64,000 nt of DNA. It comes from Amia ocellicauda. Its lineage: Eukaryota. The stretch is taken from NCBI RefSeq assembly GCF_036373705.1, contig NC_089855.1, forward strand, positions 18,021,962-18,085,961, in the 5' to 3' direction. Shown here piece by piece: positions 10,962-60,437 of the stretch. Position 1 is the stretch's first letter. Every line of letters starts with the position of its first letter. Below the pieces are notes generated by a model. That model saw only the letters and a program-made list of their open reading frames with translations. It did no database searches and had not been told where the DNA came from. A program made the translations under genes and the position numbers.

Positions 10962-11127
10962 ATCTCTCCCCCTTCCCCCATAGGGTTCACGGGAGCTGGT
11001 GCCGCAGGAGCCTGGGGCAAAAGGCCATAGCAGATGTGCAAATGCCGCCTATGTAAGGTACGCTCTGGGCCCCTCCCGCCCCTTGGGCTGAACTCGATAA
11101 GCAGGACCCCCCCACCTAACGGTTCTA

Positions 11128-12040
11128 CTACCACGAAGGGTGGTACCAATAAGGTGCCATTTTACCATGGGCCCCCCTGCGGAAGTTACAAACCAGTACC
11201 TGCTCTCCTGGAAACAAAGGGACATTCTTAGCCTGCCAGTACCGGGGCCGACTATCTCGGGACTGCTGCTGATGGGTCTTACTGGCTGCTGCGCTATACG
11301 CATCCCGTAGCCTCCGATTATGACCTGCCACCCACCCTTCTAGCATTTGCGGCACCTCTGCTGGAAATGCCCGTGGCCACATCCACGGGAAGCTGGGCCT
11401 GCCTGCCAAACATAAGAAAGAATGGTGAGTAGCTGGTTCTTTCATGTACTACATTATTATAAGTGTGTAATAATTCCAGAAGCTTATTGGGCCAATGGTG
11501 TTACTCCTCCTCCCCCAAAGTCCCGAACAGGGAAAGCAGGGTCTGGTTCATCTGCTCACAGGCTCCGTTACCCTGGATGATAGGGGTGTTCCTGCTTTTC
11601 CGTATCCCATACATGTTTGTTAAATCTGCCATTAACTGGGATTCGGAAATAGCCCCTCGGTTGCTGTGGAAACGTTCATGACAGTCGAAAGGCTGCATCC
11701 CAGTTTTCCACAGCGTTTTAACAGTAGTGGCCACTGTCTGGTCACAAACTGGGACTGCCCAAGCCTACCGAGTAAACAAATCAATAATCACCAAGACATC
11801 TGGGAAATAATCCTCAGGTCTTCCCAGCAACAAGTGATCAATAGCTACTATCTCTAATGGGTACGAGGTTACAATAGGCACCATGGGGCACTTAGTCGCC
11901 CATCGCCTAGAGTCCTCCCCTAATCCCGTACCAGAATTAATTGGAATTTTTTGAACACGCAACTGCAGCTGTGGATCATGTGAAAGCATATGATATGATA
12001 TACTTAGATTTTCAAAAAGCTTTTGATAAGGTTCCACACC
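11128..12040 (-). pseudogene. gypsy integrase catalytic core plus C-terminal domain (fragmented by stops and frameshifts)
   Basis: ORFs 11765-12037, 11501-11734 and 11128-11445 on the minus strand carry the DDE integrase core and C-terminal motifs typical of Ty3/gypsy pol. Confidence 0.7.
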
Positions 12041-13760
12041 AAAGACTGATCATCAGATTGGAAGCTGTAGACATTCAGGGTAATGTAAGTAGATGGATTA
12101 TGAACTGGTTGATGTACAGGAAACATAGGCTGTCGATTAGAGGAGTTGCTTCTAACTGGAGTGAGGTTGTTAGTGGAGTTCCACAGGGATCAGTACTAGG
12201 GCCTGTGCTTTTTCTAATCTATATTAATGATCTGGACTCTGGGATAGTTAGCAAACTTGTCTAATTTGCAGATGATACTAAAATAGGTGGCTCAGCAGAT
12301 ACAATCTCGGCAGCACAGGCTATTCAAAGGGACTTAGATAATATTCAGTTGTGGGCCGACACCTGGCAGACAAAATTCAATGTGGACAAGTGCAAGGTAA
12401 TACATGCAAGTAACAAAAATGTCCAATATAATTACACTATGGGAGGAATATAACTAGATGAAGTAATGCATGAGAAAGACCTAAGAGTCTATGTGGACTC
12501 CTCACTTTCTCCATCCAAACAATGTGGGGAAGCAATAAAAAAGGCCAACAGAATGTTAGGGTATATTGTCAAAAGTGTAGAATTGAAAACAAGGGAAGTA
12601 ATGTTCAGACTGTACAATGCACTAGCATTCAGTTCAAGACATTGACCCTCACCTACCGCTGTCTCAACCACACTGCACCAAGTTACCTCCAGACACTCGT
12701 CTCTCCATACATCCCCTCCAGACCACTGCGCTCCTCCAGCGCCAGAAGACTCACTCTACCTCCTCTCCGCTCCCCTTCCTCCAGAGCCGCTCCTTCTCAT
12801 CCCTGGCCCCCAAACGGTGGAACAACCTTCCCACTGAAGTCAAAACAGCAGAGTCCTTGACCTCATTCCGGCGCTTACTCAAGACACATCTTTTCAGACA
12901 GTACTTATAATATTAGTCAATTTAACCCCCGTCAGATAGCACTTCACAGATTGTTATTATGCTTCTTGCATTTTTGATTGTTTCCTCCTTGCTCCCTTTC
13001 CCGTAGCCCTTGACTGTGACCCTACATCTTGACAGCACTTAGTTTTACCATCCAGAATGTAGGACCTTGCCTGTGTAAATTGTAAATTGGAAGTTGTAAA
13101 ATGTATTATATTTTGAATTGCTATGTTTTATGTAAATTGAATTTGTAATGATTGATGCACTTTGTTTTGCACTTATGTTGTAAGTCGCCCTGGATAAGGG
13201 CGCCTGCCAAGAAATAATAATAATAATAATAATAATAACAGTTAGAGCTCATCTGGATACTGTGTACAGTTCTGGGCTCCACACTTCAAGAAAGATATCG
13301 CTGCTCTAGAGGCAGTTCAGAGGAGAGCAACCAGACTTATTCCAGGTCTGAAGGGAATGTCCTACTGAGAGACTGAGGATCTGAACCTTTTCACCCTGGA
13401 ACAGAGGAGACTACGTGGGGACTTGATTCAAGTCTTCAGAATCATGCAAGGCATCAACCATGTCAAACCAGAGGAGCTTTTCCAGATCAGCAGGGACACA
13501 CACACCCGGGGAGACAAATGGAAATTGGGCTTCAAGGCATTCAAGATGGAAAACAGGAGACACTTCTTCACACAGAGAGTTGTCACAATCTGGAACAAAC
13601 TCCCCAGCGATGTGGTAGAAGCTGAAAATTTGGGAACAAGTCAGACTGGATAGGATCCTTGGATCACTCGGTTATTAATGGACACCAAACGAGCACGATG
13701 GGTCGAATGGCTTCCTTTCTTGTGTAAACTTTCTTATGTTCTTATGTTCTCATGTTCTAG
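11941..13760 (+). mobile_element. CR1/L2-like LINE fragment (RT domain through 3' end) nested in the gypsy integrase, itself carrying a SINE-like insertion at 12628-13238
   Basis: ORF 11941-12264 and its continuation encode [17 protein letters not shown]...[23 protein letters not shown]...FADDTKIGG (RT motifs including FADD). After the nested insert the LINE resumes at 13241 (agttagagctcatctggatac) and encodes AHLEYCVQFWSPH...LIQVFRIMQGINHVKPEELFQISRDTHTRGDKWKL...FFTQRVVTIWNKLP, the characteristic CR1-type ORF2 C-terminus. Confidence 0.75.
12628..13238 (+). mobile_element. SINE-like interspersed repeat (5'-truncated) inserted into the LINE copy, ending in an (AAT)n tail
   Basis: Breaks the LINE reading frame exactly between LYNALA and VRAHLEY. 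It contains the widespread fish repeat signature translating as LTYRCLNHTAPSYL...FKRLLKTHLF and the 3' motif tgtaagtcgccctggataagggcgcctgc, followed by (AAT)n at 13212-13238. Confidence 0.6.
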
Positions 13761-13796
13761 AAGTAGCTCTTTCTGAAAATGGACAGGGTGCGTAGA

Positions 13797-14705
13797 CTAA
13801 TCACGTAGGCTACTCACGACCGCCTCGTGGTATTTAGTCCACAGTCCCCTCCCTCGGTTCCATGGGATGATGATCAGCGCCGCTCCTTCTCCCCCAGTGG
13901 AAGCCCCCTGTGTCAGCACGCCCTGGCAGATCTTGAGCTCCGTCCACTCTTGGAAGATCCTTTTGGCTTCAGGTAACATGGTCCGGGATATAGGCATGGG
14001 AGGCAATCTTCCCATAGCAACCCACTCACACACCTGCCAAATTGCAGGGTCTTCTTGCTGCCACTGTGCCCATGGAAAATCTTCTTCCAGTTCAGCCTCC
14101 TGGGGTACGGGTCTGTCTCCAGCTTCCACAGCCTGCACCTGAAGTAACTCTTCTCCAAGGGCCTCCCCTGGGAGTCTAGACAAAATGTCTGCATTGTCGG
14201 CCAGTATTAGATCTCAAAATTAAATATAAACCACAAAGGTTGTTCCCCAGAGGAAATCTTTAAACTTTTCAGTTACAGCCCATTTAAGCGCCAGCAGTTC
14301 CAGTTTAAAGGAGCTATAGTTCTGATCGGTAATAGCCCACAAACTTGAGGACCGATAGGACCTGCCTCACCGTGGTTGGCACTGCCTATTCTTCTACAGC
14401 ACTCTCTTTCTCCGGGTCAGGAGCCACCCCGCTCCGACTGACCCAGTGGCCCAAATAACTCACCTCCTTCTGTACGAAGAGGCATTGCAGAGTCCGAAGG
14501 GCATCCTCTCGAATTTGTACAATCCTAATGGTGTGGTAAAGGCCATCTTCTCACAGTCCCGCTTCGACTCACAGAGACTCAGCTCCCACCGGCTGGCACC
14601 CATTGATCCCCTCTCTCTTTCTCGTCAGGGCAGCTTTTATCCATACTGTGTGCTAACATGTGCAGTGGCTGTGAGTGAAGGATGGGGCGCTGCTTAGTGA
14701 AACAG
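13797..14705 (-). pseudogene. gypsy pol fragment: RT C-terminus, RNase H and integrase N-terminal region
   Basis: Minus-strand ORF 13797-14183 plus the upstream frames described above. It is truncated on the 5' side; no protease, gag or 5' LTR was recognised beyond about 14705. Confidence 0.6.
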
Positions 14706-15917
14706 GTGTGCCGCATTAGCTGTCAAAGTCCCATGCAATCATACATAAGTGAAACAAGTGCAGACCAATCAATTAATGAAAACAAACAATTAGTGAAATA
14801 ATACAAATTAAATCAACAAACAATAAAGAATAATATAATTGCAATGATGAATCACACAGAGCCTTGGCACCCTCTGTGACACTGAGCAGCACACACACAA
14901 GGGGACAGGGGCCACCAGGCGCCTGTACAGCACCAATCAAACCCAGGAGTGAGCTACCAGACTCTACTGTGGAGATGCCACCCTGGCAGATGGTACAAAT
15001 GAAAGAGGAGGTGGCAGACGGAGAAAACACACTCTCAACTGACTTCAAAAGAATAAAGGCCAGGACTACTGACACTCAACTGAAGCCAGCACCGAATTCC
15101 CAATAAAGGGAGCCGTGACTGTCTCATTCAACCTAATAAATGTGTGCAGAGAAACCCAACACACCACCACACAGATGTCAGTCAATGGGGCACCCTGGAA
15201 AAGTGCAGTGTGCTACCAGGTGCTCAGGCACTGGGATCGGTGTAGACTTGTAGGCAATAACGATGACATCAACAATCCTGTGAGACAGCCTCTGTTTAGA
15301 CAGTATCTACGCACCATGAGATACAAACAGCTGGTCTGAAGCACGGATCCCCCATGTACAATACAGGTAGCACCATAGCACCCAGACAAGGCAGAGCAGG
15401 TGCAAATGGCAAATGCCATTAACTCCACCTTCCTGTAAACATTGAAGAAGGAGATAATTTTTGGAAGAAATGCAGGGTTTAGCCAAAGCGTAACCCTGTA
15501 GCTGTTACCAGCAAAATGATCACATGAAATATAAAGAAACAGGATAGAAATCGGATAAAGAAAATCAAGGCAAATATTTGCAATAACCCTGGGATTAAGG
15601 ACAATAGGTAGAACAATGGTGTGCTGTAGTTTCATTCATAGTCTCTATATGTGTCACATTAATGTGTAGTGAGCAATTTAAACACCCAGAAAACCCATAT
15701 ACCAAAAGCCTTTCCTAGCTACTGGAAATGCCTTTGTTTCTGTCCTGGAGTTCACAATGCTAGATTTTGTGCTGCTCTCTAAGGAGCTTTTCATTTTCCT
15801 GGGTTGAATTATACCCAATATTTCCAAACGGTTATTTCCCCCTGCAGATTTTACACATTCAGCTGTTTTGTAGATTAACCCATATTTGGGAGTCAGTCAT
15901 GGGTCATATGGCTCCTC

Positions 15918-15944
15918 ACTGACTGACTGACTGACTGACTGACT
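15918..15944. repeat. (CTGA)n microsatellite
   Basis: gactgactgactgactgactgact read directly. Confidence 0.9.
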
Positions 15945-18534
15945 ATCCCTCCCCCACCCTCCCTCGGAAAAACGGCACTTCTCAGCTCAGCGCATTTGAT
16001 TCAAAGCTGCTCCTGACAGCTGGAGAGATGACATGTGTGGTTTTCTTTCCATGACGGTTGTGCTGATAGGAACTGTTAGCACCTGGGTAAGTCTGTGTCT
16101 AACTTCTCCAGCCAATGGCAAGGCAAGCAGCTGAGAACACTCTGCGCTGTGCAGCTGTCTGCAGGCTGCCTCTGAGGATGAACATACCCTGGGCAAAAAG
16201 TAATTGGACACATCCGATTGGGCGTGATTAAGCCAAATACAGTTGTTGGCAAGACAACTTGAGTTTATTGCATATTCCTGAATCCATAAACATATATTTG
16301 TATTGAGAATATTGCCCCATGCACAGCCATTGTTCTCTTGTTATAGTTCTTAAAGATGGAAGTTGATGTGGCAGAAGAGACAGATATAATTTTATCTCAT
16401 CTCAGGCTTTTTAAATGTCTTGTTAAATACTGTTTTATCTCCTTAAATTATTCAAATCAGCCACTGGTCGATTTTCTTGTACATGATGTTATTATAGAGT
16501 CATTGCTCTCTCCTTTGTTTTCTGTGTTGTGCTGTTGTATCTATTTAAAGACATCCAGCTGACAACACTTAAATTAGCATTTTCTTGTGCTGGATTGTCA
16601 CAATGTGTCTCTCCTTGAAGCTGAAGAAATGAAAAAGTGGGAGGGAATGGCAAGAGAACAGAATGCACATACATTGCATTAGCAAAGCATGAAGGGTACA
16701 CTAATGTGATTCCCTTCCATATGATTTGTTGGAAAACAAAAATGTCTTCCAAGCACAGCATTGTTGACCTCCCTTAACATGACTTAATTTCACTGTATCA
16801 CAAACACTGTACACCCCCTCCTGTCTCTGAGTTGACTGACTATTTTCCTGCATCTAACAAGCACAAATGAACTGTGCTAAACTCCTAGCACTGCTGACCT
16901 ATTTTGTGGGTAAAGTCATCCATTTTGGCGAACTTCCACAACATTACTGTCGTATTAGGTAGGGTATTAGAATTTAGTTAATCATAAAAACATTTGTGTG
17001 ATTAAGCTTTTCATTTGAAGTCATTACCATATTTGCTAATATATTTCTGGCTGTGTGCTAAGAGAAGGATGAGTGAACATATATAAACAACATTTTGATT
17101 TTGATTTTTATACACAATGAAAAGCTTTTGCTAACACCCAAACAACTAAAGCATGGTTTAATTCATTCCAGCAGCGCTTTATAGCTGGCTTTAGTCATCT
17201 TCATAGATATATTACATAAAAAAAAAAAAAAAACACACATTTGAAAACATCACAGAGGTAGCTCAGGTAGCTGCACACAATAGCTTAAATGGTTACTGAA
17301 TCCTTTCCAGTTATATTTTCATCAAACAGTACAACAATTCAAAATCTGCTGCTTGCTTCTGTGCTTTGCCTTTGCTGGGCTGTGTTTTTCCCCCCTGCTC
17401 TGTCTCTTTCTTCATAATCTGGGCCCTGCATGCTGAGTTTATTAGCAATACCTTTAATAGTTTATAGGGCTGCTTTTGTTTTTCCTTTTTGCAGATTACT
17501 TGAGTGTGAGGTTATACAATAACTCGTTGCACGATTGTTTAGAAAATTAATCGTTAAACAAGTCTTTAAAGTGATTTAGTTGTATTTAACATCTTTCGGC
17601 TCTGCGGCTATGCAGTCTCATTGAAGCCCAGTTAAGTATTAAGGTTAAGTAATGCTAAGGTTTCTTTGTCTGTTTAAATCTGGAACTAAACATTTTGAAC
17701 CATCTCTTCAGATCCCAGTGGAAGACACCTTTTCAGACAATCGTGAGGTGACATTTTACCTGGCATTTCAAATAGCAGCAATTGCACAATCATAAAAACA
17801 ATATATAGAAAATCATGTTGTAGTTTTCCTTTCAGTAATAAAGGCCATCAACTACAGAGTGCGTTTTCCTCCCTCAAAGAGACCAGGAACAGTATGTGTG
17901 AGTCTTAATATAATTGTCCCCATAGTTCTCTCTGGTGAATCAACTGCCTGCTTCATCACAGAATTTGTCATTTTCTGTTTGCAGAGAGCACTGGGATGCT
18001 CATTAGCAAGTTAGCAGGGCATCACGGTGCAAAGCTGTAGAAAGGTCATCTCCCTGAAGTATTCCAGCAGTGACTTCAAAGGCTCAGATGTGTCTGGAAT
18101 TCAACTGCCTTAATTGTCCTGATGGCGTTTTCAACACATCCGGAGCTCCGACAATCACTGCAGAGATTAATCATTTCATTTGGGCTCAAGAGATGTTGCT
18201 CAACTATACGTTGAAAGAACTTGGAGAAACGCAAGACAGATTGTATTGATTTTTTTAGGTGTATCATGAGAATTGCTCCAATACTGAATATTTCGTGTTA
18301 AAGAAGAAAGCTCTTACATTCAAATTTTAATTTCCATTTTCTTTTTCTGTTCTGTTTCCACAAAACTAAAATAACCTAGTACATTTAACTCCGGCTACAT
18401 ACTGGTATTATAGTTTATGCTTCTCAAGGGTGATGGACTAGTAAATATGAGTTATACGTAAACCATAATGATGCATAACAAGCATTTCAGGAAACTTGTT
18501 ATTTCCTGTAATTTCAGGAAATAACATGGTTGCA

Positions 18535-27887: not shown

Positions 27888-28222
27888 CATAAGAACATTA
27901 GAACATAAGAAAGGAGGAGGAGGCCATTCGACCCATCGTGCTCGTTTGGTGTCCATTAATAACTGAGTAATCCAAGGATCCTATCCAGTCTGATTTTAAA
28001 TGTTCCCACATTTTCAGCTTCAGCCACATCGCTGGGGAGTTTGTTCCAGATTGTGACAACTCTCTGTGTGAAGAAGTGTCTCCTGTTTTCTGTCTTGAAT
28101 ACCCTGCAGCCCAATTTCCATTGGTGTGTGTGTCCCTGCTGATCTGGAAAAGCTCCTCTGGTTTGATGTGGTCGATGCCTTTCATGATTTTGAAGACTTG
28201 AATCAAGTCCCCACGTAGTCTC
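27888..28222 (-). mobile_element. CR1-like LINE 3'-end fragment (5'-truncated)
   Basis: Minus-strand ORF 27898-28275 encodes LIQVFKIMKGIDHIKPEELFQISRDTHTNG. It is near-identical at the nucleotide level to the copies at 13241-13760 and 45472-46012, including the shared 3' terminus cttatgttctaatgttcttatg. Confidence 0.75.
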
Positions 28223-29027
28223 ATCTGATGGGCTAAATGGGTAAAATAATAAGCAACAATAATAAGCAAAATCATTATGCTGCTATTGTGTAACCAATTT
28301 TAATTTTTAAATTTAAAATTAAATCAACTATAGAAACCTACAAGACAGAAAGACAAACATGGGATTCCTCTCCAAATAAGATGTGAAACAGCATGATTGT
28401 AGATTAAACAACACATTTTGGTTCTGAGCCATAGCTTTCTGAACCCCAGATTATTGTGTGTTACAAATTTATAGAACCCTTTCAAAGCAGCAGCACCTCC
28501 ATGTTAGTGCTGGTTTCAACTAATAAATATTTTTTTAGGAAATATTTGTAAGACTTCTACTCCAACTCATGTACACACCAGTCATAAATAACAAAGGCAG
28601 AATGCTATTTACATTAAAAAATAAATAAATGAGTGCATTACGCATATTCCAGATTGCATCAGACAAACATACCTTAGGAATTTCATATGAACAACTGAAG
28701 CCAAACTAATTTAAAGCCAATATCTAATTTTCATAGGAAGTGGCCAACTGGCTACAAATCAGAAAAATAATCAATGACTTTAAAAGGTCCCAATTAATCC
28801 ACTGTCCTTAGAAAAATGCTGTGAATCCAGACAGTCACTGCCAATGTCCATATTTAGAGGTAATCAGCGTCTGATGCCAAGTTTCTTAGTGGAAGACAGT
28901 CCCCACCAATTAAATATTATTAATAAATTACACTTAATTGTGAACCACAAGGGACAGGGAGGAGTAAAAGTCCTCCAATCTCATTACCAACTAATCTTTT
29001 TCAAAAATCAGCTTTTGGACTGATATA

Positions 29028-30971: not shown

Positions 30972-33846
30972 TGGTTGTACTATGGCAACATTAAAGGGGA
31001 AAGGGGTTTATAATTACTATAGGTAAACCCTGAATTTGTGAAGTTTAATGAAATCTATAATGAAACATTATTGGATTGTATCTGATTGGCCCATGACAGT
31101 GAACTGATTTAAACATGCTTTGAACAGGACCATGCTTTGATCAGGTATCCCATGTTTAACATTGATATGCTTTATGATTGCAGAGAAGTGATATTAACGT
31201 GAAACAGAGCGGACCAAATATTTCTTAATATTAAAACCTACCACTGCATTTGGGAGCAAGATCACTCACAATTATTATTTTACTGGATCTTAAATTTAAA
31301 GATCAAAAATACAAAGAAGTCTGGAGATTGCTTGCTCTGTGTGTTCTAGTCACATGACATCAGTCTCTGCTCTCAGCATATTTGACCACCCACCCCTATC
31401 TTTCATATTATTAAGGTCATTCAACATGCCCACATAACTACTGAGCCAATCAATTTAGACTCCCTTAAAAATAAACAATACAAAATCATTCTACAGCAAA
31501 TCGATACTTTTTTCCCCATTAGTCGCCCAAAAGGAACTTGTTGCTTATTCTGTTCTGGATTTGCAGAATAGACCACTGTTTCACAGCATGATGGTAAGGA
31601 AACTAATGCTCAGGGGCACTTTTCAGATTCAAAACTCTTGCCTTATGCAGTCGTGGTTTAAAGAGTGGTCTAAGTAGAATGGTCCAAACAGATTACTGCA
31701 ATCCTTTCTACTGAAGAAGAAACAGTTCTGCAGAGCTCCTCTCAAAAGCCGTCCAATCTCATCAAGAGGTCACTGTCATTATCAGCTCTGCTCCTTCTGG
31801 GAGTTCAAAATTTAATAGGTTACTAACCCAGTGCTGCAGGGTGAACACTGTTGCTCTGAGATGTCAGCTTTCATGAAGCTGTTAGAAAAGAAATCACACT
31901 GCTAGAAGGAGTGAGAGCAGGAATTGTTTTCTGAGTGCAATGTTTTAACCAGAGTTCAATGTGTTATTTCCTTCAAAATACCTCTTACTTTAAAGAGTAG
32001 GTAATTGTTGGTAACTTAGACTTAAGTTGAATCCCATTAAACAACAACCCATATCTAGATGCTAACAATGTATTCACTTAACCAGTTTGACAATACATGG
32101 AAATTACAAGTATCTATTAATACCGCACTAATAATACACAGCTAATATGCTGAGTGTCATTGTCCATGTTAGCAGATATTATGCAAATATTATTATCAAT
32201 GTAGTAAAGGCAACAGTGTAGCACAGTGGGGACAAAACAAAGGCTCACATACACAGTACACAGCCTCTGACTCCAAGCAGCACACAAAGGAAGGAGCAAC
32301 CAATAATAAGCAATGACTTTACGTGTCTTTGCTTCTTCCCCCATTGGTTGCAAACAAAAGCTGTAACCACATCATTAAAATTGAATGCTGCTTATTCATA
32401 TTTTTATTATACTGTACATATTTTGTTTTCTGTTTAGTGGTTGTGGAAAGTTACCTAGCAAATCATAAATTTTTATACCAAATATATATTTTTATGTTTA
32501 CATTGTGATCATTTAATAGTTCATTTCAGAGAAGATCTTGCTAGGAGTGAATTCTTTGACTCGAGTTTTTTTTTTATCAAAATGGCATTACATTTGATCA
32601 ACAAACCTTATCCTCCTTTGGGCAATATGTAATCCTGCCATCTACCCAAAGACTGTCTTCTTCAATTATGCACAGTGATGCATTTGGCTTAGAGACATTA
32701 CCAAATTTGTGTAAATAAATACAGAAAGACATTCACGTATGTGTCTAGGGTTAGCAATTATGATAATGTCAATCATTTCAAGCCATTTAGGAACCATATG
32801 AAATTTGACTTCAAATGAGCAATAATGCAAATGAACATAAATGTGACCAAGCCAGTGAGCTCAGTAGGTTAGTGTTCATATCCTAAAGTCATTAGCACTC
32901 TGCGTAATCCCTGTGGAGATGTGCCATTCCAATTAACTCATTAAAAACAGCAATTACACACTGAAAAGGCAGGAAATATAAACTAAAACTTGTATAAGAC
33001 ATACCATAGGCTTGCAATATATTTCTAAATTGATATATACACTTTAAGACATCAATTTTAAATGTTTTTCCTGATTTTTTCACTTCTGGCAACTTGGGCA
33101 CTGACAGGTAGTCTGTCAATTGGGCTTAGATCTCAGAGAGATGTCACATCTCAATTTAACAAATCTCCCAATCAGCTCAGAAGGCAGGATCTCAATTATT
33201 GTATTCATCATTGCAATCCACACTGATCTCTCAGTCTAAAGTAGCACCTTATATTTATGTTTCCTTGGTGGCTTTAATGAATATTTTTACAGGAAAAACA
33301 GGAAAGGGCATTGAATGAGGTTTGAACCTGTCCTTTAACTAGTCTCCATGTGAGATTTCTCAGCATGGTGTATTTCCAAAATAACCAATGAAAATCTATA
33401 TTAATAGCCATATATAAACAGTTTCAACTTGAAAACTGCTGAAGGCTTTAGAGTCTCATTTATTGAACTATTCTTTAGGATTTAATTTCATTGAGTGTTA
33501 AACAGTGGAAAATATATCCAAAGAGCCAGACTTGAAAAGGTTAGTAATTAGTAATACAGGAAAGCAATATTGTTCTGGTCTTTTCAAGGCACAGAATTGG
33601 TTTGTTAAGGGCAGATAAAGGGCCCTTTATCCTTAATTACATGTTTTAAATGATGTAAAAATACAATATATTGACCCTGAGCTGTTTTCACACAGTACTT
33701 TGTATTTTAGAGAAAGTGCTTTCTGAAAGTGCTTCTGACTATCATATGGGGTTTTATATTAAAATACACCTGAAATGTTATCATTTAACCTTAAAGAGGA
33801 ATAAATAGAGTTACAAATATAATTATAAATTATATATATATATATA

Positions 33847-35070
33847 CACTCACCTAAAGGATTATTAGGAACACCTGTTCAATTTCTCATTAATGCAATT
33901 ATCTAACCAACCAATCACATGGCAGTTGCTTCAATGCATTTAGGGGTGTGGTCCTGGTCAAGACAATCTCCTGAACTCCAAACTGAATGTCTGAATGGGA
34001 AAGAAAGGTGATTTAAGCAATTTTGAGCGTGGCATGGTTGTTGGTGCCAGACGGGCCGGTCTGAGTATTTCACAATCTGCTCAGTTACTGGGATTTTCAC
34101 GCACAACCATTTCTAGGGTTTACAAAGAATGGTGTGAAAAGGGAAAAACATCCAGTATGCGGCAGTCCTGTGGGCGAAAATGCCTTGTTGATGCTAGAGG
34201 TCAGAGGAGAATGGGCCGACTGATTCAAGCTGATAGAAGAGCAACTTTGACTGAAATAACCACTCGTTACAACCGAGGTATGCAGCAAAGCATTTGTGAA
34301 GCCACAACACGTACAACCTTGAGGCGGATGGGCTACAACAGCAGAAGACCCCACCGGGTACCACTCATCTCCACTACAAATAGGAAAAAGAGGCTACAAT
34401 TTGCACAAGCTCACCAAAATTGGACAGTTGAAGACTGGAAAAATGTTGCCTGGTCTGATGAGTCTCGATTTCTGTTGAGACATTCAGATGGTAGAGTCAG
34501 AATTTGGCGTAAACAGAATGAGAACATGGATCCATCATGCCTTGTTACCACTGTGCAGGCTGGTGGTGGTGGTGTAATGGTGTGGGGGATGTTTTCTTGG
34601 CACACTTTAGGCCCCTTAGTGCCAATTGGGCATCGTTTAAATGCCACGGCCTACCTGAGCATTGTTTCTGACCATGTCCATCCCTTTATGACCACCATGT
34701 ACCCATCCTCTGATGGCTACTTCCAGCAGGATAATGCACCATGTCACAAAGGTCGAATCATTTCAAATTGGTTTCCTGAACATGACAATGAGTTCACTGT
34801 ACTAAACTGGCCCCCACAGTCACCAGATCTCAACCCAATAGAGCATCTTTGGGATGTGGTGGAACGGGAGCTTCGTGCCCTGGATGTGCATCCCACAAAT
34901 CTCCATCAACTGCAAGATGCTATCCTATCAATATGGGCCAACATTTCTAAAGAATGCTTTCAGCACCTTGTTGAATCAACGCCACGTAGAATTAAGGCAG
35001 TTCTGAAGGCGAAAGGGGGTCAAACACAGTATTAGTATGGTGTTCCTAATAATCCTTTAGGTGAGTGTGT
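33847..35070 (+). mobile_element. Tc1-like DNA transposon (second family), full-length copy A with intact transposase ORF, inserted in a (TA)n tract
   Basis: 30-bp terminal inverted repeats: acactcacctaaaggattattaggaacacc at the 5' end and its reverse complement at 35041-35070. A (TA)n tract lies immediately upstream (33826-33846). The internal ORF is uninterrupted and 346 aa long. Confidence 0.85.
33995..35035 (+). CDS. Tc1-family DDE transposase, apparently intact (346 aa)
   Basis: Open from ATG to stop. It has an N-terminal paired-like/HTH region (GDLSNFERGMVVGARRAGLSISQSAQLLGFSRTTISRVYKEW) and a catalytic triad in Tc1-type spacing (WSDESRF ... FQQDNAPCH ... LNPIEHLWDV). It is 98-99% identical to copies B and C, which carry a truncation or a nonsense mutation. 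Confidence 0.8.
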   Translation: MGKKGDLSNFERGMVVGARRAGLSISQSAQLLGFSRTTISRVYKEWCEKGKTSSMRQSCGRKCLVDARGQRRMGRLIQADRRATLTEITTRYNRGMQQSICEATTRTTLRRMGYNSRRPHRVPLISTTNRKKRLQFAQAHQNWTVEDWKNVAWSDESRFLLRHSDGRVRIWRKQNENMDPSCLVTTVQAGGGGVMVWGMFSWHTLGPLVPIGHRLNATAYLSIVSDHVHPFMTTMYPSSDGYFQQDNAPCHKGRIISNWFPEHDNEFTVLNWPPQSPDLNPIEHLWDVVERELRALDVHPTNLHQLQDAILSIWANISKECFQHLVESTPRRIKAVLKAKGGQTQY

Positions 35071-35838
35071 ATATATTGAGTGTGCCAAGAAAACATCCCC
35101 CACACCATTACACCACCACCACCACCAGCCTGCACAGTGGTAGCAAGGCATGATGGATCCATGTTCTCATTCTGTTTACGCCAAATTCTGACTCTACCAT
35201 CTGAATGTCTCAACAGAAATCGAGACTCATCAGACCAGGCAACATTTTTCCAGTCTTCAACTGTACAATTTTGGTGAGCTTGTGCAAATTGTAGCCTCTT
35301 TTTCCTATTTGTAGTGGAGATGAGTGGTACCCGGTGGGGTCTTCTGCTGTTGTAGCCCATCCGCCTCAAGGTTGTATGTGTTGTGGCTTCACAAATGCTT
35401 TGCTGCATACCTCGGTTGTAACGAGTGGTTATTTCAGTCAATGTTGCTCTTCTATCAGCTTGAATCAGTCGGCCCATTCTCCTCTGACCTCTAGCATCAA
35501 CAAGGCATTTTCGCCCACAGGACTGCCGCATACTGGATGTTTTTCCCTTTTCACACCATTCTTTGTAAACCCTAGAAATGGTTGTGCGTGAAAATCCCAG
35601 TAACTGAGCAGATTGTGAAATACTCAGACCAGCCCGTCTGGCACCAACAACCATGCCACGCTCAAAATTGCTTAAATCACCTTTCTTTCCCATTCAGACA
35701 TTCAGTTTGGAGTTCAGGAGATTGTCTTGACCAGGACCACACCCCTAAATGCATTGAAGCAACTGCCATGTGATTGGTTGGTTAGATAATTGCATTAATG
35801 AGAAATTGAACAGGTGTTCCTAATAATCCTTTAGGTGA

Positions 35839-35842
<4 letters not shown>
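35071..35842 (-). mobile_element. Tc1-like (second family) copy B: inverted 5' portion (TIR plus N-terminal 215 codons), abutting copy A tail-to-tail
   Basis: It is the reverse complement of element positions 1 to about 770, and includes ORF 35046-35693 (minus strand). Its 5' TIR ends ggtgagtgt at 35842 and is followed by (TA)n at 35843-35904. It is joined to the copy A 3' TIR by only 8 bp (gtatatat). Confidence 0.8.

Positions 35843-35904
<62 letters not shown>
35843..35904. repeat. (TA)n microsatellite flanking copy B
   Basis: Read directly. Confidence 0.95.
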
Positions 35905-35910
<6 letters not shown>

Positions 35911-38900
35911 TTATTTATTAAAATATTCCTGTTTTCCCTTGTTTTTTAGCAGACAATTTAGTCTTCATTTCAATCATGCTCTACAAATATACACTGTAAT
36001 TCTTGAAATTCAAGAAAATGTGATTCAAATGTTATATGAAGATGGGAGGAAGAAGGTGTCTCTCTGCAACAGTTTGCCAGGTGAATTGTTTAATGGAAAT
36101 CTTCGTGCCTGCTCTTTATCTTTCATGAGCCAGTTGTACACATTTCTGATTCACAGAGGACGGGTTCTCCGTCTCAATGTTTGTAAATCAATGCACAGCC
36201 ATGAAATCCCAGCTGTGGCTCTACGTTATCTTCAGTAATGCATGTGACGGATTTGCAACTATATTGACATATTGCAATGTCCGGTTTGACTGGTGCAGTC
36301 AGTCCGCAGTCTCACATGTATACCTCATAGTCAGTTACCCTGAAGCACTGCTTCGGTGTAGCGTACCCTACAGTACATCTGTCAAGGCCCTGTACAATCC
36401 CATTAAACTGATGACGAAAGATCAAATCTGAAAAAGTGAATTATTGCTCTCTGGGCAGGATTGTAATTCTAGTATTGCCTGCAAACTTCCACTGCAAGGA
36501 AAATGAGAATGTGTGACAAGGATTAATTAAACACTTATCATTAGACGATCTTTATAATATCCTTCAGTACCCATCAGTGTTCTCAGTGTTAGAAATGTGA
36601 GGTCACAGTAAAAAAAAGACCTTTCTGTTCTTATAATTCTAGCTTCATAATACCATAGGCTAACCAATTATCTATTTCTCCTGACTTGCATATCAATAGA
36701 AGGTAATGACAGACAGCCCTGGGCAAGGTCAAAACTTCCCTAATTAAACCTTGAAGCACTCCAATCATCGCATTACACATAACAAAGTAGGCCAAAAGCA
36801 TACATTCTTTCATTTACAAAATTATACTCAATTAGCATGAACAGACACTCAATAGACTTATAAGATACATTTCTCTACCATATCCATATAATTTGTGTTT
36901 TTTTTTTTTCCCTTTTCTATGTATGTGACATATGTTGCAGTGCAACTTGCAGTTCATTATTAATCTCATTTTCCTGGTTACTTGCTTCATCTCTCAAAAG
37001 TGATGCCTAACCTTGTGAGAAACACAAGCTCAATGCAATTAAAGCATAATAAAGCACAGACAAAATTATTGTAAATTCAGCCAATCATGTTCCGGTGATG
37101 GTATGAACACTGCAACAAGTGCAAGAAATAATTGAGAATACATTAAAATGTGCCAGGACAGTTAAGACTTATGTTGTCCATACAACAGTTAACAGAAAAG
37201 TGACATCCCCAAATGCCATTCATAACTGGATGTACTGATGGACAGCAGCCCAGATATGCATTGACATTGCAATTAGTAATACATATCCTAAGCTGTTAAA
37301 TTCCACTAATGTTAAAATGGATCCCTTCACATCTGACTGGTTCCTCCATCCTATGTTACAGTACATCAGACTGTGATTGCATCAAATGCAGCATCGCTGT
37401 GACTGTACCACATCGTCTGTTATAGCATATTTGTATGAAACAATTTTGAAAAGTAAGCAATTAAAATAATACTAAATTGCAATAGAGAAAATGTCAACCT
37501 AAAGAAAGCTGATAAAACAGGGTTAAACTAAACACTGGGAACTCTGTACACCCAAAGGAAATACCGTTATTCACTAGGTATGGTTATTGGAGAGGTGGCA
37601 ACAACAACAACACATACTGGTTGGCCTATCTATCTTTTCCTTTATTCATTTCAGTTCTTACAGGAATTTATGTACGTATTTAAAAGTGCGTTTCATCATG
37701 GTGAATGCATTGAACACTTGATGGCAAAGCAACATAATTACTGAACAATTAAAGAAATAAAGGCCAAATAATGTTTCACATAAAAGGAAAATATACAAAA
37801 TTGGTTTGGCACTGTGAGCATTAATTCAGAATATTTACAACATGCACTGATACACAGGAATCCAGGGGCAATTCTGTGTTTGGTTCGCTCTCTGCCTCTT
37901 TCTTATTTCCATATTGGCATGGCCAGGAGGCAGAGTTTAATAACCATCTTTACATTTACTGCAATGTCAGATGACCTTTAGTTTGGACCATAAAGGTTGT
38001 GACTACAGAGTTCTTTAAATGCAATAAAGGTACACAGCCTCTGGGACTATACCAAAAACAATATGCAATGGGGAGGCAACGAGGGGAATAACAGGAGCAC
38101 AAATGATGCACAGGACTTGCCCATATCGCTGGAATCATTATACTGCAGGAAAAGCCTTTAAAGGAACATGACGACATGGTTAAGATCAGTTAGGCATTCA
38201 TTAAAACAATTACAAGGTATTTTTACAGCATTTTGAAACCCTTTCAGAAAACTGAAATGACCTGGGGAAAGCATCTGACCCACATTCAGAAAAAAATCTT
38301 CTCCCCTGGCTGCTGGGGGAATGGCTGCTTCATTACCTTCAGGATTAGACAGTATCTGGGCTTTATTCTGTCTATTTGTCTAGCTTTCCCCCCTGTCTGT
38401 GTAGAGCTGTGTAAGCCTTTTTCTCCATCAGAGAATATGCTTGTTTGGAGCAAGTCTGTTAATATGGTGCTTTGTAGTACTCCACTAGAAGGACATAGTA
38501 ATGCACCTTGTATCGTATCTTTAAGTCTTGTTTTTTGTCGTCCATCAAACCTAGACTAGGACAATAGACCCACCAACACCAACAACTGCCTACACATGGA
38601 TTTTGTATTTCCTGCAAATGCAGACTCATTCACAGCCAGGGTCAGGGACTAATTCTGTCTTCTTTTAGTGCAAAACGATAACAACCTGCGTAATATATTC
38701 AGTTACCACTGTGACACAAGCTGCTGCCATCGAAGGCAAAATGAATGCTAACTCTCTCACCCCAAGGATTCTCTTGACAGTTGACGAGTTTCCATTATTT
38801 ACTACTGGTGTATTTCTGGAATCAGACCCACACAAAGCTTTATGTAAGGCAGTCCTACAAACAAAAGGTCATTCTACTATTTAAATTGTATGGAAAAATG

Positions 38901-50164: not shown

Positions 50165-51674
50165 CAGTGAGGGGAAAAAAGTATTTGATCCCCTGCTGAT
50201 TTTGTACGTTTGCCCACTGACAAAGAAATGATCAGTCTATAATTTTAATGGTAGGTGTATTTTAACAGTGAGAAAATTGATTTGCATGTTAATGAGGGAA
50301 ATAAGTATTTGACCCCTTCGACTTAGTACTTGGTGCCAAAACCCTTGTTGGCAATCACAGAGGTCAGACGTTTCTTGTAGTTGGCCACCAGGTTTGTACA
50401 CATCTCAGGAGGGATTTTGTCCCACTCCTCTTTGCAGATCCTCTCCAAGTCATTAAAGTTTCGAGGCTGACGTTTGGCAACTCGAACCTTCAGCTCCCTC
50501 CACAGATTTTCTATGGGATTAAGGTCTGGAGACTGGCTAGGCCACTCCAGGACCTTAATGTGCTTCTTCTTGAGCCACTCCTTTGTTGCCTTGGCTGTGT
50601 GTTTTGGGTCATTGTCATGCTGGAATACCCATCCACGACCCATTTTCAATGCCCTGACTGAGGGAAGGAGGTTCTCACCCAAGATTTGACGGTACATGGC
50701 CCTGTCCATCGTCCCTTTGATGCGGTGCAGTTGTCCTGTCCCCTTAGCAGAAAAACACCCCCAAAGCATAATGTTTCCACCTCCATGTTTGAAGGTAGGG
50801 ATGGTGTTCTTGGGGTCATTCCTCCTCCTCCAAACACGGCGAGGTCTCATCTGACCACAACACTTTCACCCAGTTCTCCTCTGAATCATTCAGATGTTCA
50901 TTGGCAAACTTCAGACGGGCCTGTACATGTGCTTTCTTGAGCAGGGGGACCTTGCGGGTGCTGCAGGATTTTAGTCCTTCATGGCATAGTGTGTTACCAA
51001 TTGTTTTCTTGGTGACTATGGTCCCAGCTGCCTTGAGATCATTAACAAGATCCTCCCGTGTAGTTCTGGGCTGATTCCTCACCGTTGTCATGATCATTGA
51101 AACTCCACGATGTGAGATCTTGCATGGAGCCCCAGACCGAGGGAGACTGACAGTTATTTTGTGTTTCTTCCATTTGCGAATAATCGCAGCAACTGTTGTC
51201 ACCTTCTCACCAAGCTGCTTGGCGATGGTCTTGTAGCCCATTCCAGCCTTGTGTAGGTCTACAATCTTGTCCCTGACATCCTTGGACAGCTCTTTGGTCT
51301 TGGCCATGGTGGAGAATTTGGAATCTGAGTGATTGATTGCTTCTGTGGACAGGTGTCTTTTATACAGGTAACGAGCTGAGATTAGGAGCACTCCCTTTAA
51401 GAGAGTGCTCCTAATCTCAGCTCGTTACCTGTATAAAAGACACCTGGGAGCCAGAAATTTTGCTGATTGATAGGGGATCATATACTTATTTCCCTCATTA
51501 TCATGCAAATCAATGTATAACTTTTTTGAAATGTGTTTTTCTGGATTTTTTTGTTGTTCTTCTGTCTCTCACTGTTAAAATACACCTACCATTAAAATTA
51601 TAGACTGATTATTTATTTGTCAGTGGGCAAACATACAAAATCAGCAGGGGATCAAATACTTGTTTCCCTCACTG
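50165..51674 (-). mobile_element. Tc1/mariner (Sleeping-Beauty-like) full-length copy (1510 bp) with frameshifted transposase, in rnf17 intron 5, antisense to the gene
   Basis: The TIRs cagtgaggggaaaaaagtatttgatcccctg sit at both ends (inverted), each flanked by TA. The minus-strand ORFs 50816-51391 and 50323-50850 together encode a complete SB-like transposase ([26 protein letters not shown]...DDE...[14 protein letters not shown]...KGFGTKY), split by one frameshift near 50816-50850. Confidence 0.9.
50323..51391 (-). pseudogene. Sleeping-Beauty-like Tc1 transposase pseudogene (single frameshift)
   Basis: Two overlapping ORFs cover the N-terminal paired-like DNA-binding domain and the DD34E catalytic domain. 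The overlap of the two frames at 50816-50850 indicates an indel. Confidence 0.85.
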
Positions 51675-54328: not shown

Positions 54329-54374
<46 letters not shown>

Positions 54375-54427
54375 ATGTATATATATATGTATGTATATGT
54401 ATATATATATATATATATGTATGTATA

Positions 54428-54463
<36 letters not shown>

Positions 54464-54587
54464 TATGTATATATATATATATATGTATGTATATGTATAT
54501 ATATATATATATGTATGTATATGTATATATATATATATATGTATGTATGTATGTATATGTATATATATGTATATATGTATGTATATG

Positions 54588-54658
<71 letters not shown>

Positions 54659-54683
54659 GTGTATGTATATATATATATGTATA
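54329..54683. repeat. about 355 bp compound (TA)n/(TG)n/(TATG)n microsatellite immediately 5' of Tc1-like copy C
   Basis: Read directly. It generates the spurious YIYIY / CVCVC ORFs at 54246-54743. Confidence 0.95.
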
Positions 54684-55904
54684 TACTCACCTAAAGGATT
54701 ATTAGGAACACCTGTTCAATTTCTCATTAATGCAATTATCTAACCAACCAATCACATGGCAGTTGCTTCAATGCATTTAGGGGTGTGGTCCTGGTCAAGA
54801 CAATCTCCTGAACTCCAAACTGAATGTCTGAATGGGAAAGAAAGGTGATTTAAGCAATTTTGAGCGTGGCATGGTTGTTGGTGCCACACGGGCCGGTCTG
54901 AGTATTTCACAATCTGCTCAGTTACTGGGATTTTCACGCACAACCATTTCTAGGGTTTACAAAGAATGGTGTGAAAAGGGAAAAACATCCAGTATTCGGC
55001 AGTCCTGTGGGCGAAAATGCCTTGTTGATGCTAGAGGTCAGAGGAGAATGGGCCGACTGATTCAAGCTGATAGAAGAGCAACTTTGACTGAAATAACCAC
55101 TCGTTACAACCGAGGTATGCAGCAAAGCATTTGTGAAGCCACAACACATACAACCTTGAGGCGGATGGGCTACAACAGCAGAAGACCCCACCGGGTACCA
55201 CTCATCTCCACTACAAATAGGAAAAAGAGGCTACAATTTGCACAAGCTCACCAAAATTGGACAGTTGAAGACTGGAAAAATGTTGCCTGGTCTGATGAGT
55301 CTCGATTTCTGTTGAGACATTCAGATGGTAGAGTCAGAATTTGACGTAAACAGAATGAGAACATGGATCCATCATGCCTTGTTACCACTGTGCAGGCTGG
55401 TGGTGGTGGTGTAATGGTGTGGGGGATGTTTTCTTGGCACACTTTAGGCCCCTTAGTGCCAATTGGGCATCGTTTAAATGCCACGGCCTACCTGAGCATT
55501 GTTTCTGACCATGTCCATCCCTTTATGACCACCATGTACCCATCCTCTGATGGCTACTTCCAGCAGGATAATGCACCATGTCACAAAGGTCGAATCATTT
55601 CAAATTGGTTTCTTGAACATGACAATGAGTTCACTGTACTAAACTGGCCCCCACAGTCACCAGATCTCAACCCAATAGAGCATCTTTGGGATGTGGTGGA
55701 ATGGGAGCTTCGTGCCCTGGATGTGCATCCCACAAATCTCCATCAACTGCAAGATGCTATCCTATCAATATGGGCCAACATTTCTAAAGAATGCTTTCAG
55801 CACCTTGTTGAATCAATGCCACGTAGAATTAAGGCAGTTCTGAAGGCGAAAGGGGGTCAAACACAGTATTAGTATGGTGTTCCTAATAATCCTTTAGGTG
55901 AGTG

Positions 55905-55905
<1 letters not shown>
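54684..55905 (+). mobile_element. Tc1-like (second family) copy C in rnf17 intron 11, sense orientation, flanked on both sides by (TA)n; transposase inactivated by one nonsense mutation
   Basis: TIR (t)actcacctaaaggattattaggaacacc at the 5' end and ggtgttcctaataatcctttaggtgagtgt at the 3' end. ORFs 54832-55344 and 55363-55872 are separated by a TGA at 55345 (RI*, versus RIW in copy A). A few missense differences otherwise. Confidence 0.85.
54832..55872 (+). pseudogene. Tc1-family transposase with a premature stop (TGG to TGA at 55345)
   Basis: Compared with the intact ORF at 33995-35035 it has the same length and frame, one nonsense change and a few missense changes. Confidence 0.8.
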
Positions 55906-55979
<74 letters not shown>

Positions 55980-55992: not shown

Positions 55993-56059
55993 CATGTTCC
56001 TGATACAGAAAAAAGCTTTAAATAGAGCTTTTAATTATAGTAATTTTATTAACTTTTAG

Positions 56060-56221
56060 TTTTCCAGGAGTGGGTGTTCGTTACCCATGTGGTAAACCCA
56101 AACCATTTCTACATAAGAAGACTTTCAGAGAGCAAGGCTGCAGCTGTGCTGACCAGAAGGATCAATTTGTTTTGTAATGGGGAGAGAAATATTTTTAATC
56201 CTAGTGATGTTCTGGAATTAG
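56060..56221 (+). CDS. rnf17: rnf17 exon 12 (start of Tudor domain 1: [54 protein letters not shown])
   Basis: Acceptor ttttag|, donor tta g|gtgagt. Matches human [50 protein letters not shown]. Confidence 0.85.
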
Positions 56222-56449
56222 GTGAGTGCCAGTTACTGGATAAATGTTGTATTTGTATTAAATTAGTGAGTGACACATTTTTCTTTTCATCCTAACCAGC
56301 AGATAAATACTTGTTCTTTATAACATCTGTAAGATAATTTTAGGCTTGAATTAATCCCTCACAAATAAACCTTTTTGTATATGTTTTTGGAAAAGGTAGA
56401 AATTAGAGATTTGTGTGTGCTGTATAGCTGAGTGTCTTCTACATGACAG

Positions 56450-56624
56450 GTTCTACAATCTTTGTGAAATGGAAAGAAAACATGTGGTGCAGAGCAACCA
56501 TAATGGAACTTTTCCAAGAGTGCAAGGAACCCCGGGCTGTACCAAGGTGTACCATGGCAGAGGTTTCTGACCTCAAAGTCTTTTTTGTTGATTTTGGCTT
56601 CAGCAAAAGGATACCTCCTGCAAG
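56450..56624 (+). CDS. rnf17: rnf17 exon 13 (Tudor 1 core: GSTIFVKWKENMWCRATIMEL...VFFVDFGFSKRIPPA)
   Basis: Acceptor catgacag|, donor caag|gtattc. Matches human [21 protein letters not shown]...IFMVDFGNSEV. Confidence 0.85.
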
Positions 56625-56944
56625 GTATTCAAAAAAGCATTTTGACATTTAAGTTGGTGGTAAATTGACAATTAATATCTGGTCAAAGCTATATCCTCAT
56701 ATTGAACCCAAAGAGCAGGATGGAACCAGACTGCTTTGTGTTTGGTGTTAAGGTGCTGTGACAGTGTTTGTTTCTTAAGTTGTCTGTCAGATAAAAGCTT
56801 TTTCATTTTAAAATGCATCTACTTCCCAGAGAAAATTATAGCTTTGTGGTGATGCTGGTTTAAGATATTCCAAAATGTTGAGTCCCAATTCAAAACATAA
56901 ATATAATTAAGAGAATTCATTTTTTTGTTTGTTTACATGTATAG

Positions 56945-57155
56945 ATCTGAAAACCATTCTGAAGCAGAAGACGGTCATGTTCTGGACTTTCAGTTGGACA
57001 TCAGTCAGTGCATTAGAAAACCTGACCTCGCAACTCGTGCTGAAATGAACAAATGGGCTTCATTGTCCATCAGATGTTCACTCAAGGACATTGTACCTGC
57101 AGACTTGGCAAGAGAATTTACTTTGACATGTCTCTTTTATAAGAAAATAATTGTA
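56945..57155 (+). CDS. rnf17: rnf17 exon 14 (Tudor 1 C-terminal part: [52 protein letters not shown]...); 3' boundary uncertain
   Basis: Acceptor tgtatag|. CSLKDIVP is identical to human RNF17. The next exon must be entered in phase 0. In-frame GT donors exist only at 57093 (gtacct, weak, and it would remove the conserved VP), 57153 (gtagta) and 57156 (gtaaag). I list the end at 57155. Confidence 0.45.
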
Positions 57156-57524
57156 GTAAAGGGGCTCCCCTCAATACTTTAATTATCTGTGCTTCTGTTC
57201 CCAGTCATTTGATTAAACTTTGTGGTTTTTGATCCATTTGTATTGTTTTGTGAATCAATTTTACATACTCTTGGCATATTAAAATGAGAGCTTCATAGAG
57301 CTAACGTGCAACTCGACTCCAAGCACAAAGCTCAGAGTACACAGAGTAGTGATGGTAATTTGGTCTTGTGCAAGACACAAGATACGCTACAGAAGCTCAT
57401 GCAGAAAACTCGTAGTTGTGCCATGGGTGTAAAAACATTGCAACAAAAATGGACCCCTGTGTGTTGCTTTTTGATTTTGCAGAGCTGTGTAGAGGAGGAT
57501 CTCTCGGTAACAATAGCTGTTCAT

Positions 57525-57545
57525 TTTTTTTTTTTTTTTTTTTTT
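57525..57545. repeat. (T)21 homopolymer serving as the polypyrimidine tract of the exon 15 acceptor
   Basis: Read directly. The acceptor tgtcag| is at 57556. Confidence 0.9.
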
Positions 57546-57556
57546 CTTGATGTCAG

Positions 57557-57747
57557 GAGAACGGCTGGGGGCCAGAAGCTCAGACAGAATTTGTGCGTGT
57601 TGTGGGCAAGAATGCAGTTGAAATGAAAGTGTTTGGGGAGGATGGGGACACGTTGCTGGTGGATCTGAAGAAATCTCCAAGGGACAAGATGGCCACTGAC
57701 ATGCCAGTATCCCTCAGAGATCACCTGGTCTTTCTGGAGCTGGCAAG
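57557..57747 (+). CDS. rnf17: rnf17 exon 15 ([63 protein letters not shown])
   Basis: Acceptor ttgatgtcag|, donor gca ag|gtggga. Matches human [63 protein letters not shown]. Confidence 0.85.
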
Positions 57748-58101
57748 GTGGGACAGTTCAGACCATCACCACTTTATTATTATTATTATTTTTATTTCAT
57801 GGCAGATGCCCTTATCCAGGGCACAACATAAGTGCAATACAAAGTGCAAGAATACAGTTAAGTACAAGGCATCAAATATTACAAATTCAAATTAACATTA
57901 TACAAAGCAATTCAAAATATAATACATTTTACAACTTCCAATTTACACGGGTAAGTACAGTAAGTGAGGTCATACATCCTGGAAAGTAAAAGCTAAGTCC
58001 TGTCAAGGGCTATGGGAAAGGGAGCAAGGGGGAAATCAATCCCTTTCTATAAAAACCTCCATTAACTCCTTGTGTCCATTACCCATTCTTTCATTTTTAA
58101 G

Positions 58102-58252
58102 ATTTTACTCCCCAATTTCTTGGACTCCAAAGACATTGCCTTGTGGTAGAAAACCTCTGCCGTATTGCTCGCCACTGTATCCCGAGCTACTGGTTGACTT
58201 CAATGCAGTTGTGTGCCACATCAACAGTCCCTCAGACTTCTACATTCAGGTT
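58102..58252 (+). CDS. rnf17: rnf17 exon 16 (start of Tudor 2: ...ELLVDFNAVVCHINSPSDFYIQV)
   Basis: Acceptor tttttaag|, consensus donor gtt|gtaagt. Matches human VSVTVCHINSPGDFYLQL. Confidence 0.8.
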
Positions 58253-58611
58253 GTAAGTAGGGAAAAATGTGTATTCTAGGGTTTCACAATGTTTCTTTAA
58301 TTGTATTTCCAAACCGTAACAAAAGCATGTAGTATGTAATGTACTGAACTGAAGTTGCTTTAATTTAGTAGTGTGGCATTATGAGCCTAAAAATCTGAGA
58401 TTTAAAAAATAATTAAAACAAATGTGCCATCTACCAAATAATTAGTGTAAATATGGTAATTTTTACTATCTTTAAATTATTTTTCTACAATAGTGCTCCT
58501 TTTAATATTAAAGCTGATGCATTTTATAATGAACCCCTCTTTTTAAGGTGTTTTAAAGACTGACTGAGTTATTTAAAGCAGTCTTTACTTTTTGCACTGG
58601 TTTGAAAACAG

Positions 58612-60321: not shown

Positions 60322-60437
60322 GTCTCCCTGGAAGCAGGACTGTGGAGGTCAGGTTTGTGGACTTTGGAAACCACATGACCCTGTCAGTGAACAACGTGCG
60401 AAAAATTAAAGATGAGTTCTTTGCTTTACCAGCAATG
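60322..60437 (+). CDS. rnf17: rnf17 exon 18 ([39 protein letters not shown])
   Basis: Acceptor tgtcacag|, donor atg|gtgagt. Matches human [39 protein letters not shown]. Confidence 0.85.

Follow-up and report, generated by a model that had tools for sequence, protein, structure and literature searches.

The question raised by this locus is whether the reading frame at 33995-35035 of the window (the whole 64,000-nucleotide stretch of DNA analysed here) belongs to a transposon that still moves by means of its own transposase. The original prediction had read it as an apparently intact Tc1-family gene in a young element, with two further copies (here called B and C) in the same stretch. Self-BLAST of the window placed the boundaries of the full-length element that carries the frame, copy A, at 33847-35067 on the forward strand (1221 bp), and the frame itself was confirmed to encode 346 aa without interruption. 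The features of copy A are as follows.

33845-33846, no strand: left TA target-site duplication of copy A, from the flank readout, bordering a (TA)n run
33847-33875, forward strand: left TIR of copy A, 29 bp, CACTCACCTAAAGGATTATTAGGAACACC
33995-35035, forward strand: transposase ORF of copy A, 346 aa
34457-34459: codon of the catalytic residue D155
34730-34732: codon of the catalytic residue D246
34776, T>C: private substitution L261P
34841-34843: codon of the catalytic residue E283
34980, T>C: private substitution M329T
35039-35067, reverse strand: right TIR of copy A, 29 bp, perfect match to the left TIR

The TIR sequence, CACTCACCTAAAGGATTATTAGGAACACC, is perfect at both ends of copy A and occurs five times in the window, where shuffles gave an expectation of 0.00 occurrences; a search of the window allowing up to three mismatches found no MITE or solo-TIR derivatives. 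While the left flank of copy A is TA, the right flank reads TG (35068-35069) at the place where the TA duplication is expected.

The 346-aa product carries three Pfam domains, namely HTH_23 (residues 11-47), HTH_Tnp_Tc3_2 (residues 71-142), and DDE_3 (residues 151-295), all of which scored above their curated cut-offs. The first two bear out the N-terminal paired-like DNA-binding region that had been claimed for this protein, as do six N-terminal helices (residues 9-112, pLDDT ~80-88) in a structure predicted by AlphaFold from a 26-sequence alignment; this model is confident for the N-terminal DNA-binding half only, the pLDDT being below 50 for residues 152-279. In the second half, the triad is made up of D155 in WSDES, D246 in FQQDN, and E283 in NPIEH, with 90 and 36 residues between them, which is a DD36E spacing. 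A sequence search of the PDB returned one relative, the catalytic domain of Sleeping Beauty (SB) SB100X (5CR4; E=3.8e-44), whose alignment (i) brings WSDE, QQDN, and NPIE into register with the SB catalytic motifs and (ii) leaves a two-residue gap in SB ('WLK--DNKV') opposite 'WFPEHDNEF' of the copy A transposase. The alignment with 5CR4 found D155, D246, and E283 intact, and thus none of the inactivating catalytic substitutions for which a check had been proposed. The Tc1-type DDE triad of the original prediction therefore stands as far as the catalytic residues are concerned, but its spacing makes it DD36E, where Tc1 proper has DD34E.

On these features, the ORF very probably encodes the transposase of an individual copy of Incomer (IC), the DD36E sister family of Tc1 in the Tc1/mariner superfamily. 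Incomer, known from over 130 fish species, was described by Sang et al. 2019 (Mob DNA 10:45; PMC6875036) and defined as an element of ~1.2 kb with a single ORF of ~346 aa, a DD36E triad, 22-32-bp TIRs starting CACTC, and a TA duplication; intact fish copies measure 1169-1229 bp and encode 314-356 aa, and the clade was delimited by its authors via phylogeny (PMC6875036). Copy A has (i) the spacing of 36 residues, in the register confirmed against 5CR4 and shared by 74 of the 77 retrieved relatives that keep both the D and the E, (ii) a length of 1221 bp and a product of 346 aa, (iii) perfect 29-bp TIRs with the terminal sequence of the Esox, Leuciscus, and Paramormyrops entries, and (iv) the N-terminal bipartite helix-turn-helix, seen as HTH_23 plus HTH_Tnp_Tc3_2. 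The TA duplication is complete in copy C (TA/TA), present at the preserved end of copy B, and degenerate in copy A (TA/TG). In Table S1 of the Incomer study, entries with this same terminal sequence include those of Esox lucius (5418 copies, 266 intact), Paramormyrops kingsleyae (547 copies, 224 intact), and Leuciscus waleckii (235 copies, 13 intact) (PMC6875036).

At the nucleotide level, copy A and IC_Caau, the goldfish consensus, share 99.27% identity over 1225 bp (8 mismatches in 1221 bp), and the identity of copy A to the IC_Paki consensus is 99.02%. Membership in the Incomer clade is certain at 99.27% identity to IC_Caau, the basis of the assignment being identity and not a tree, and nothing contradicts the family assignment. 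A DD34E Tc1 in the strict sense, which would have a 34-residue spacing, was ruled out by the spacing of 36 together with the 99.3% identity to IC_Caau. Of the Tc1-family label given in the original prediction, the placement in the Tc1/mariner superfamily and the completeness of the element were upheld, whereas the family proved to be Incomer.

Within the family, copy A is a member of Cluster B, as the family's authors call a young lineage of fish and frog elements; they inferred horizontal transfer for its 56 fishes and 3 frogs (PMC6875036). The top protein relatives, which are 96-98% identical to the copy A transposase, come from carp, Paramormyrops, Polypterus, Esox, Leuciscus, and Neogobius, with a Xenopus fragment in addition, and this spread agrees with the horizontal transfer inferred for Cluster B. 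Intact Incomer copies were reported in 33 ray-finned fish species, with current or recent activity suggested (PMC6875036). Copy A is, in this respect, an ordinary copy of a known family, whose structure, horizontal spread, and intact and possibly active copies were already published in 2019.

Two entries met among the relatives carry names that are probable database mislabels. A cluster of 19 sequences (P0106), 77% identical to the copy A transposase, is named 'transposase, partial [Vibrio parahaemolyticus]' and comes from an 874-bp contig, likely animal DNA contaminating a bacterial assembly; the other, a 346-aa Incomer transposase of Fundulus heteroclitus (P0035), carries the UniRef name 'Mitochondrial ribosomal protein L58'.

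Copies B and C were delimited as follows.

35079-35841, reverse strand: copy B, inverted, element positions 1 to ~760 only, with its 5' TIR at 35813-35841
54684-55904, forward strand: copy C, full-length, 1221 bp, with TA/TA duplications

These extents lie close to those first given, and the identity of 98-99% that had been stated for the two copies was reproduced, copy B being 98.95% identical to copy A (five mismatches and a 3-bp in-frame insertion) and copy C 99.3% identical (8 mismatches in 1221 bp). Pairwise divergence among the copies in the window is 0.65-1.05%, and their youth was thereby confirmed. Copy B lacks the 3' 460 bp of the element, and its private changes comprise, besides this truncation, four substitutions (two synonymous ones, W143C, and V184A) and a GGT insertion. 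Copy C has a stop at codon 171 (W171stop, TGG>TGA, 55342-55344), as well as R19T, M55I, R291W, and a C>T change at base 1 of its left TIR. The copies had been thought to differ only by a truncation, one nonsense mutation, and a few missense changes; all of these were found, but the insertion in copy B and the mutated TIR base in copy C have to be added to them. Further, R106H is common to copies B and C, whereas copy A keeps R106.

The differences among the copies were polarised with the published Incomer consensus, copies A and C having 8 and 12 mismatches, respectively, to IC_Caau. Six substitutions from the consensus proved common to the window copies, copy B being too short for the last two of them; in a numbering of the element plus TA, they are located at 63, 148, 468 (synonymous), 563 (R138Q), 908 (A253G), and 963 (K271N). 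All six are absent from every tabulated element of PMC6875036 and from eight public loci, and the two diagnostic 5'-UTR variants of the sublineage were found in none of the tabulated elements of PMC6875036. Exact look-ups in the protein collection returned neither the copy A protein, nor the copy B and C fragments, nor the inferred sublineage ancestor, nor any of four other ORFs of the window, and none of the public contigs searched encodes the exact copy A protein. By these sequence comparisons, the shared substitutions identify a source lineage peculiar to this genome. R138Q, A253G, and K271N are each present in two or more copies that inserted independently, which means that DNA with these changes was mobilised after they had arisen.

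After insertion, the copies appear to have been left to themselves. Among the private ORF substitutions of the three copies, 9 of 11 are nonsynonymous or nonsense and 2 of 11 are synonymous, and the neutral expectation for the nonsynonymous and nonsense share of this ORF is 77% (p=0.53), which argues for copies that decay without selection, as inserted transposon copies do. By analogy with Sleeping Beauty and Tc1, the N-terminal helix-turn-helix pair would bind the 29-bp TIRs, and the RNase-H-like domain (D155/D246/E283) would excise the element and paste it into a TA dinucleotide, with duplication of that TA. The three copies would descend from the genome-specific source lineage marked by the six shared substitutions and would then have decayed neutrally, copy A keeping its frame by chance, copy C gaining its stop, and copy B losing its 3' 460 bp. 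Divergence from the inferred local source amounts to 0.16% for copy A, 0.4-0.5% for copy C, and 0.5-0.7% for copy B. If a neutral rate of 1-5e-9 per site per year is assumed for vertebrates, copy A is probably a recent insertion, ~10^5 to 10^6 years old (roughly 0.3-1.6 million), and copies B and C would, at the same assumed rate, be roughly up to a few million years old. The youth of the copies does not demonstrate ongoing activity.

All three Incomer copies, which lie within 22 kb, sit in microsatellites of the (TA)n or (TA/TG)n type, the (TA)n runs around them being located at 33826-33846, 35842-35918, 54329-54685, and 55905-55975. Copies in (TA)n tracts are as expected for a transposase that targets TA. 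Sleeping Beauty prefers AT-repeat targets. This setting suggests TA microsatellites as insertion hotspots, local hopping of the element, or both. Copies A and B are joined tail to middle in inverted orientation (33831-35857), as a pair with 744-nt arms that are 99% complementary and 539 nt apart, in which position 1221 of copy A abuts position ~760 of copy B at the following junction.

35068-35078, no strand: A/B junction, 11 bp, TGTATATATTG, its first two bases being TG at the place of the expected right TA

The A/B arrangement and the TG at the right end of copy A are unexplained by simple insertion. A nested insertion of copy A into copy B was rejected, as the junction is not at the TA of copy B (763-764) and the missing 3' part of copy B is not found beyond copy A; a simple fold-back artefact was rejected as well, since the asymmetric join excludes a symmetric fold-back. 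The simplest reading, though unproven, is that the two copies inserted independently into one (TA)n tract and that a deletion came afterwards.

Inverted arms of this length and complementarity, so close to each other and flanked by low-complexity (TA)n that is hard to assemble, could also arise if the adjacent copies were an assembly artefact (a fold-back or a chimeric join) and not two real insertions. We consider this very improbable, because a fold-back would pair each position with its own complement, whereas the join is asymmetric, and because copy B differs from copy A at five positions and one indel and has H106, as in copy C, instead of the R106 of copy A; the finding of the ORF is, moreover, independent of copy B. 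Even closer to nil is the chance that the ORF is a domesticated, host-co-opted transposase gene that is not part of a mobile element. While its reading frame is intact and the region also holds a host multi-Tudor gene, the ORF has perfect TIRs on either side, three neutrally decaying copies lie within 22 kb, and the sequence is 99.3% identical to mobile copies at unrelated loci in distant fish orders; the TIRs and the multiple copies effectively refute domestication. Copy A thus remains, in our reading, one copy of a mobile Incomer element, and the question becomes whether it is an autonomous, currently active one, whose own transposase drives ongoing transposition in this genome.

We regard such activity as unlikely, although several observations speak for it. 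Copy A combines an open ORF and an intact D155/D246/E283 triad with two perfect 29-bp TIRs; it is only two private substitutions away from the source sequence inferred for it; R138Q, A253G, and K271N, which mark the sublineage, are common to at least two independent insertions; and Incomer's authors consider the family possibly active in fish (PMC6875036). However, the shared sublineage changes are no proof of a working protein, because mobilisation in trans is possible, and the 'apparently intact' ORF of the original prediction is, at this divergence, a weak sign of function. Random substitutions create a stop codon in this ORF in 4.6% of cases, and an ORF with 5-7 substitutions stays open with a probability of 0.72-0.79, that of copy A having six from the consensus; with so high a chance of an open frame at this divergence (~75%), intactness of the ORF carries little information on function. 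The changed residues themselves also argue against activity. Five residues of the copy A protein depart from the consensus (R138Q, A253G, L261P, K271N, and M329T), and both of its private changes, L261P and M329T, are nonsynonymous. Among 94 relatives of 300-400 aa, G253, P261, and N271 are found in none, 88 of them having A at the first of these positions, 82 having L at the second, and 75 having K at the third; T329 is found in one of the 94, while Q138 is common in the wider family. In the stretch that separates the second D from the E, P261 is the immediate neighbour of the two inserted residues by which DD36E is defined; its position was judged via the sequence alignment to 5CR4 and not via the AlphaFold model, because the pLDDT of the latter is below 50 at residues 152-279. 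Finally, copy A has a TG and not a TA at its right flank, and flanking TAs matter for excision in Sleeping Beauty. Copy A, in short, has the open ORF, triad, and TIRs of an active transposon, but it has changes at conserved positions and lacks a TA at one of its two ends.

In terms of sequence, copy A is not the best-preserved example of Incomer. The consensus protein, which equals the translation of IC_Caau, is found verbatim in public data (P0163), and seven full-length elements from ENA metagenome assemblies have 0-2 mismatches to IC_Caau, two of them with zero, versus 8 for copy A; these seven have unrelated flanks, and six of them have TA/TA duplications. The public loci in question (L001-L008, from ENA metagenome assemblies ERZ272... 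and ERZ18665320) hold vertebrate Incomer sequences that match the goldfish consensus exactly or almost exactly, with a different flank in every case, and are presumably host (fish) DNA in the samples; in two of them (L003 and L004), other Tc1-like ORFs adjoin the Incomer copy.

The window contains a second, unrelated Tc1-type element at 50172-51668 on the reverse strand, a Sleeping Beauty/Passport-like DD34E element with the Pfam domains HTH_SB, HTH_Tnp_Tc3_2, and DDE_3. Its transposase is split into ORFs at 50816-51391 and 50323-50850 and is thus frameshifted; its arms (50172-50273 and 51567-51668) are 102 nt long and 96% complementary, and a near-perfect palindrome of 48 nt (51350-51397 and 51399-51446, 98% complementary and 1 nt apart) lies at the 5' end of the ORF. 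This element looks older and decayed. The exons of the host multi-Tudor-domain gene occupy 56053-60578 on the forward strand, possibly extending to 64000 (Pfam PF00567, E=2e-9 and 1e-19), with the first recognisable Tudor exon starting ~170 bp downstream from copy C of Incomer. When the first Tudor repeat, 106 aa from two exons, was used to search for homologues, no match was obtained, which indicates that the gene is divergent or that its host is poorly represented in databases. A search for upstream Tudor exons, which would make the copies intronic, returned the query exons themselves only. Elsewhere, a GC-richer stretch at 8000-16000 (0.43-0.49, versus ~0.37 elsewhere) holds retroelement-like ORFs, for example, at 13797-14183 on the reverse strand, and a LINE-like ORF lies at 27898-28275 on the reverse strand; Pfam gave no match for three of these retroelement-like and LINE-like ORFs, and Rfam gave none in the window.

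What the locus may add to the published picture of the family can be stated with caution only. It is possible, if doubtful, that the window copies represent an uncatalogued, host-specific Incomer sublineage that transposed after R138Q, A253G, and K271N had arisen, and that the DD36E transposase encoded by copy A, or by its immediate ancestor with L261 and M329, might be active in nature. If copy A or that ancestor were active, it would be the first functional DD36E member for the vertebrate transposon toolbox; the consensus-identical copies in public contigs are, however, more sensible candidates for an assay than copy A. With its three copies in 22 kb, the window also illustrates the accumulation of TA-targeting elements in (TA)n microsatellites.

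Among known systems, the closest are the Incomer consensuses themselves. IC_Caau, IC_Paki, and IC_Eslu (Esox lucius) share with copy A a length of 1221 bp (1225 bp with TA), a 346-aa product, the DD36E triad, the same 29-bp TIRs, and the TA target. Compared with the Cluster B consensus, the window copies have the six sublineage substitutions, three of which change the protein (R138Q, A253G, and K271N), and copy A adds its private L261P and M329T; the host, moreover, is apparently none of the species for which the tables of PMC6875036 give sequences. Sleeping Beauty and Tc1 proper have the same order of domains, a paired-like bipartite helix-turn-helix followed by an RNase-H-like DDE domain, and they target TA as well. 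In contrast to Sleeping Beauty, copy A has two extra residues (E262 and H263) between the second D and the E, and its TIRs are 29 bp in an element of 1.2 kb, whereas Sleeping Beauty has ~230-bp IR/DR repeats in an element of ~1.6 kb.

Active Tc1 elements had been called rare in vertebrates when this locus was first noted, so rare that Sleeping Beauty had to be reconstructed, which was true in 1997 but has been outdated since the native vertebrate Tc1-type elements Passport (2009; PMC2651795), Thm3 (2015; PMC4683633), and ZB (2021; PMC7913693) were shown to transpose and Intruder/DD38E (2020) was found to transpose with ~45% of SB activity in HeLa cells (PMC7731502). In the literature searched, no DD36E element was found for which a transposition assay is on record, which counts against assuming activity for copy A. 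Like copy A, all four of these are young fish elements with intact ORFs; they are, however, DD34E or DD38E elements whose transposition was seen in cell assays, whereas copy A is a DD36E element as read from its sequence.
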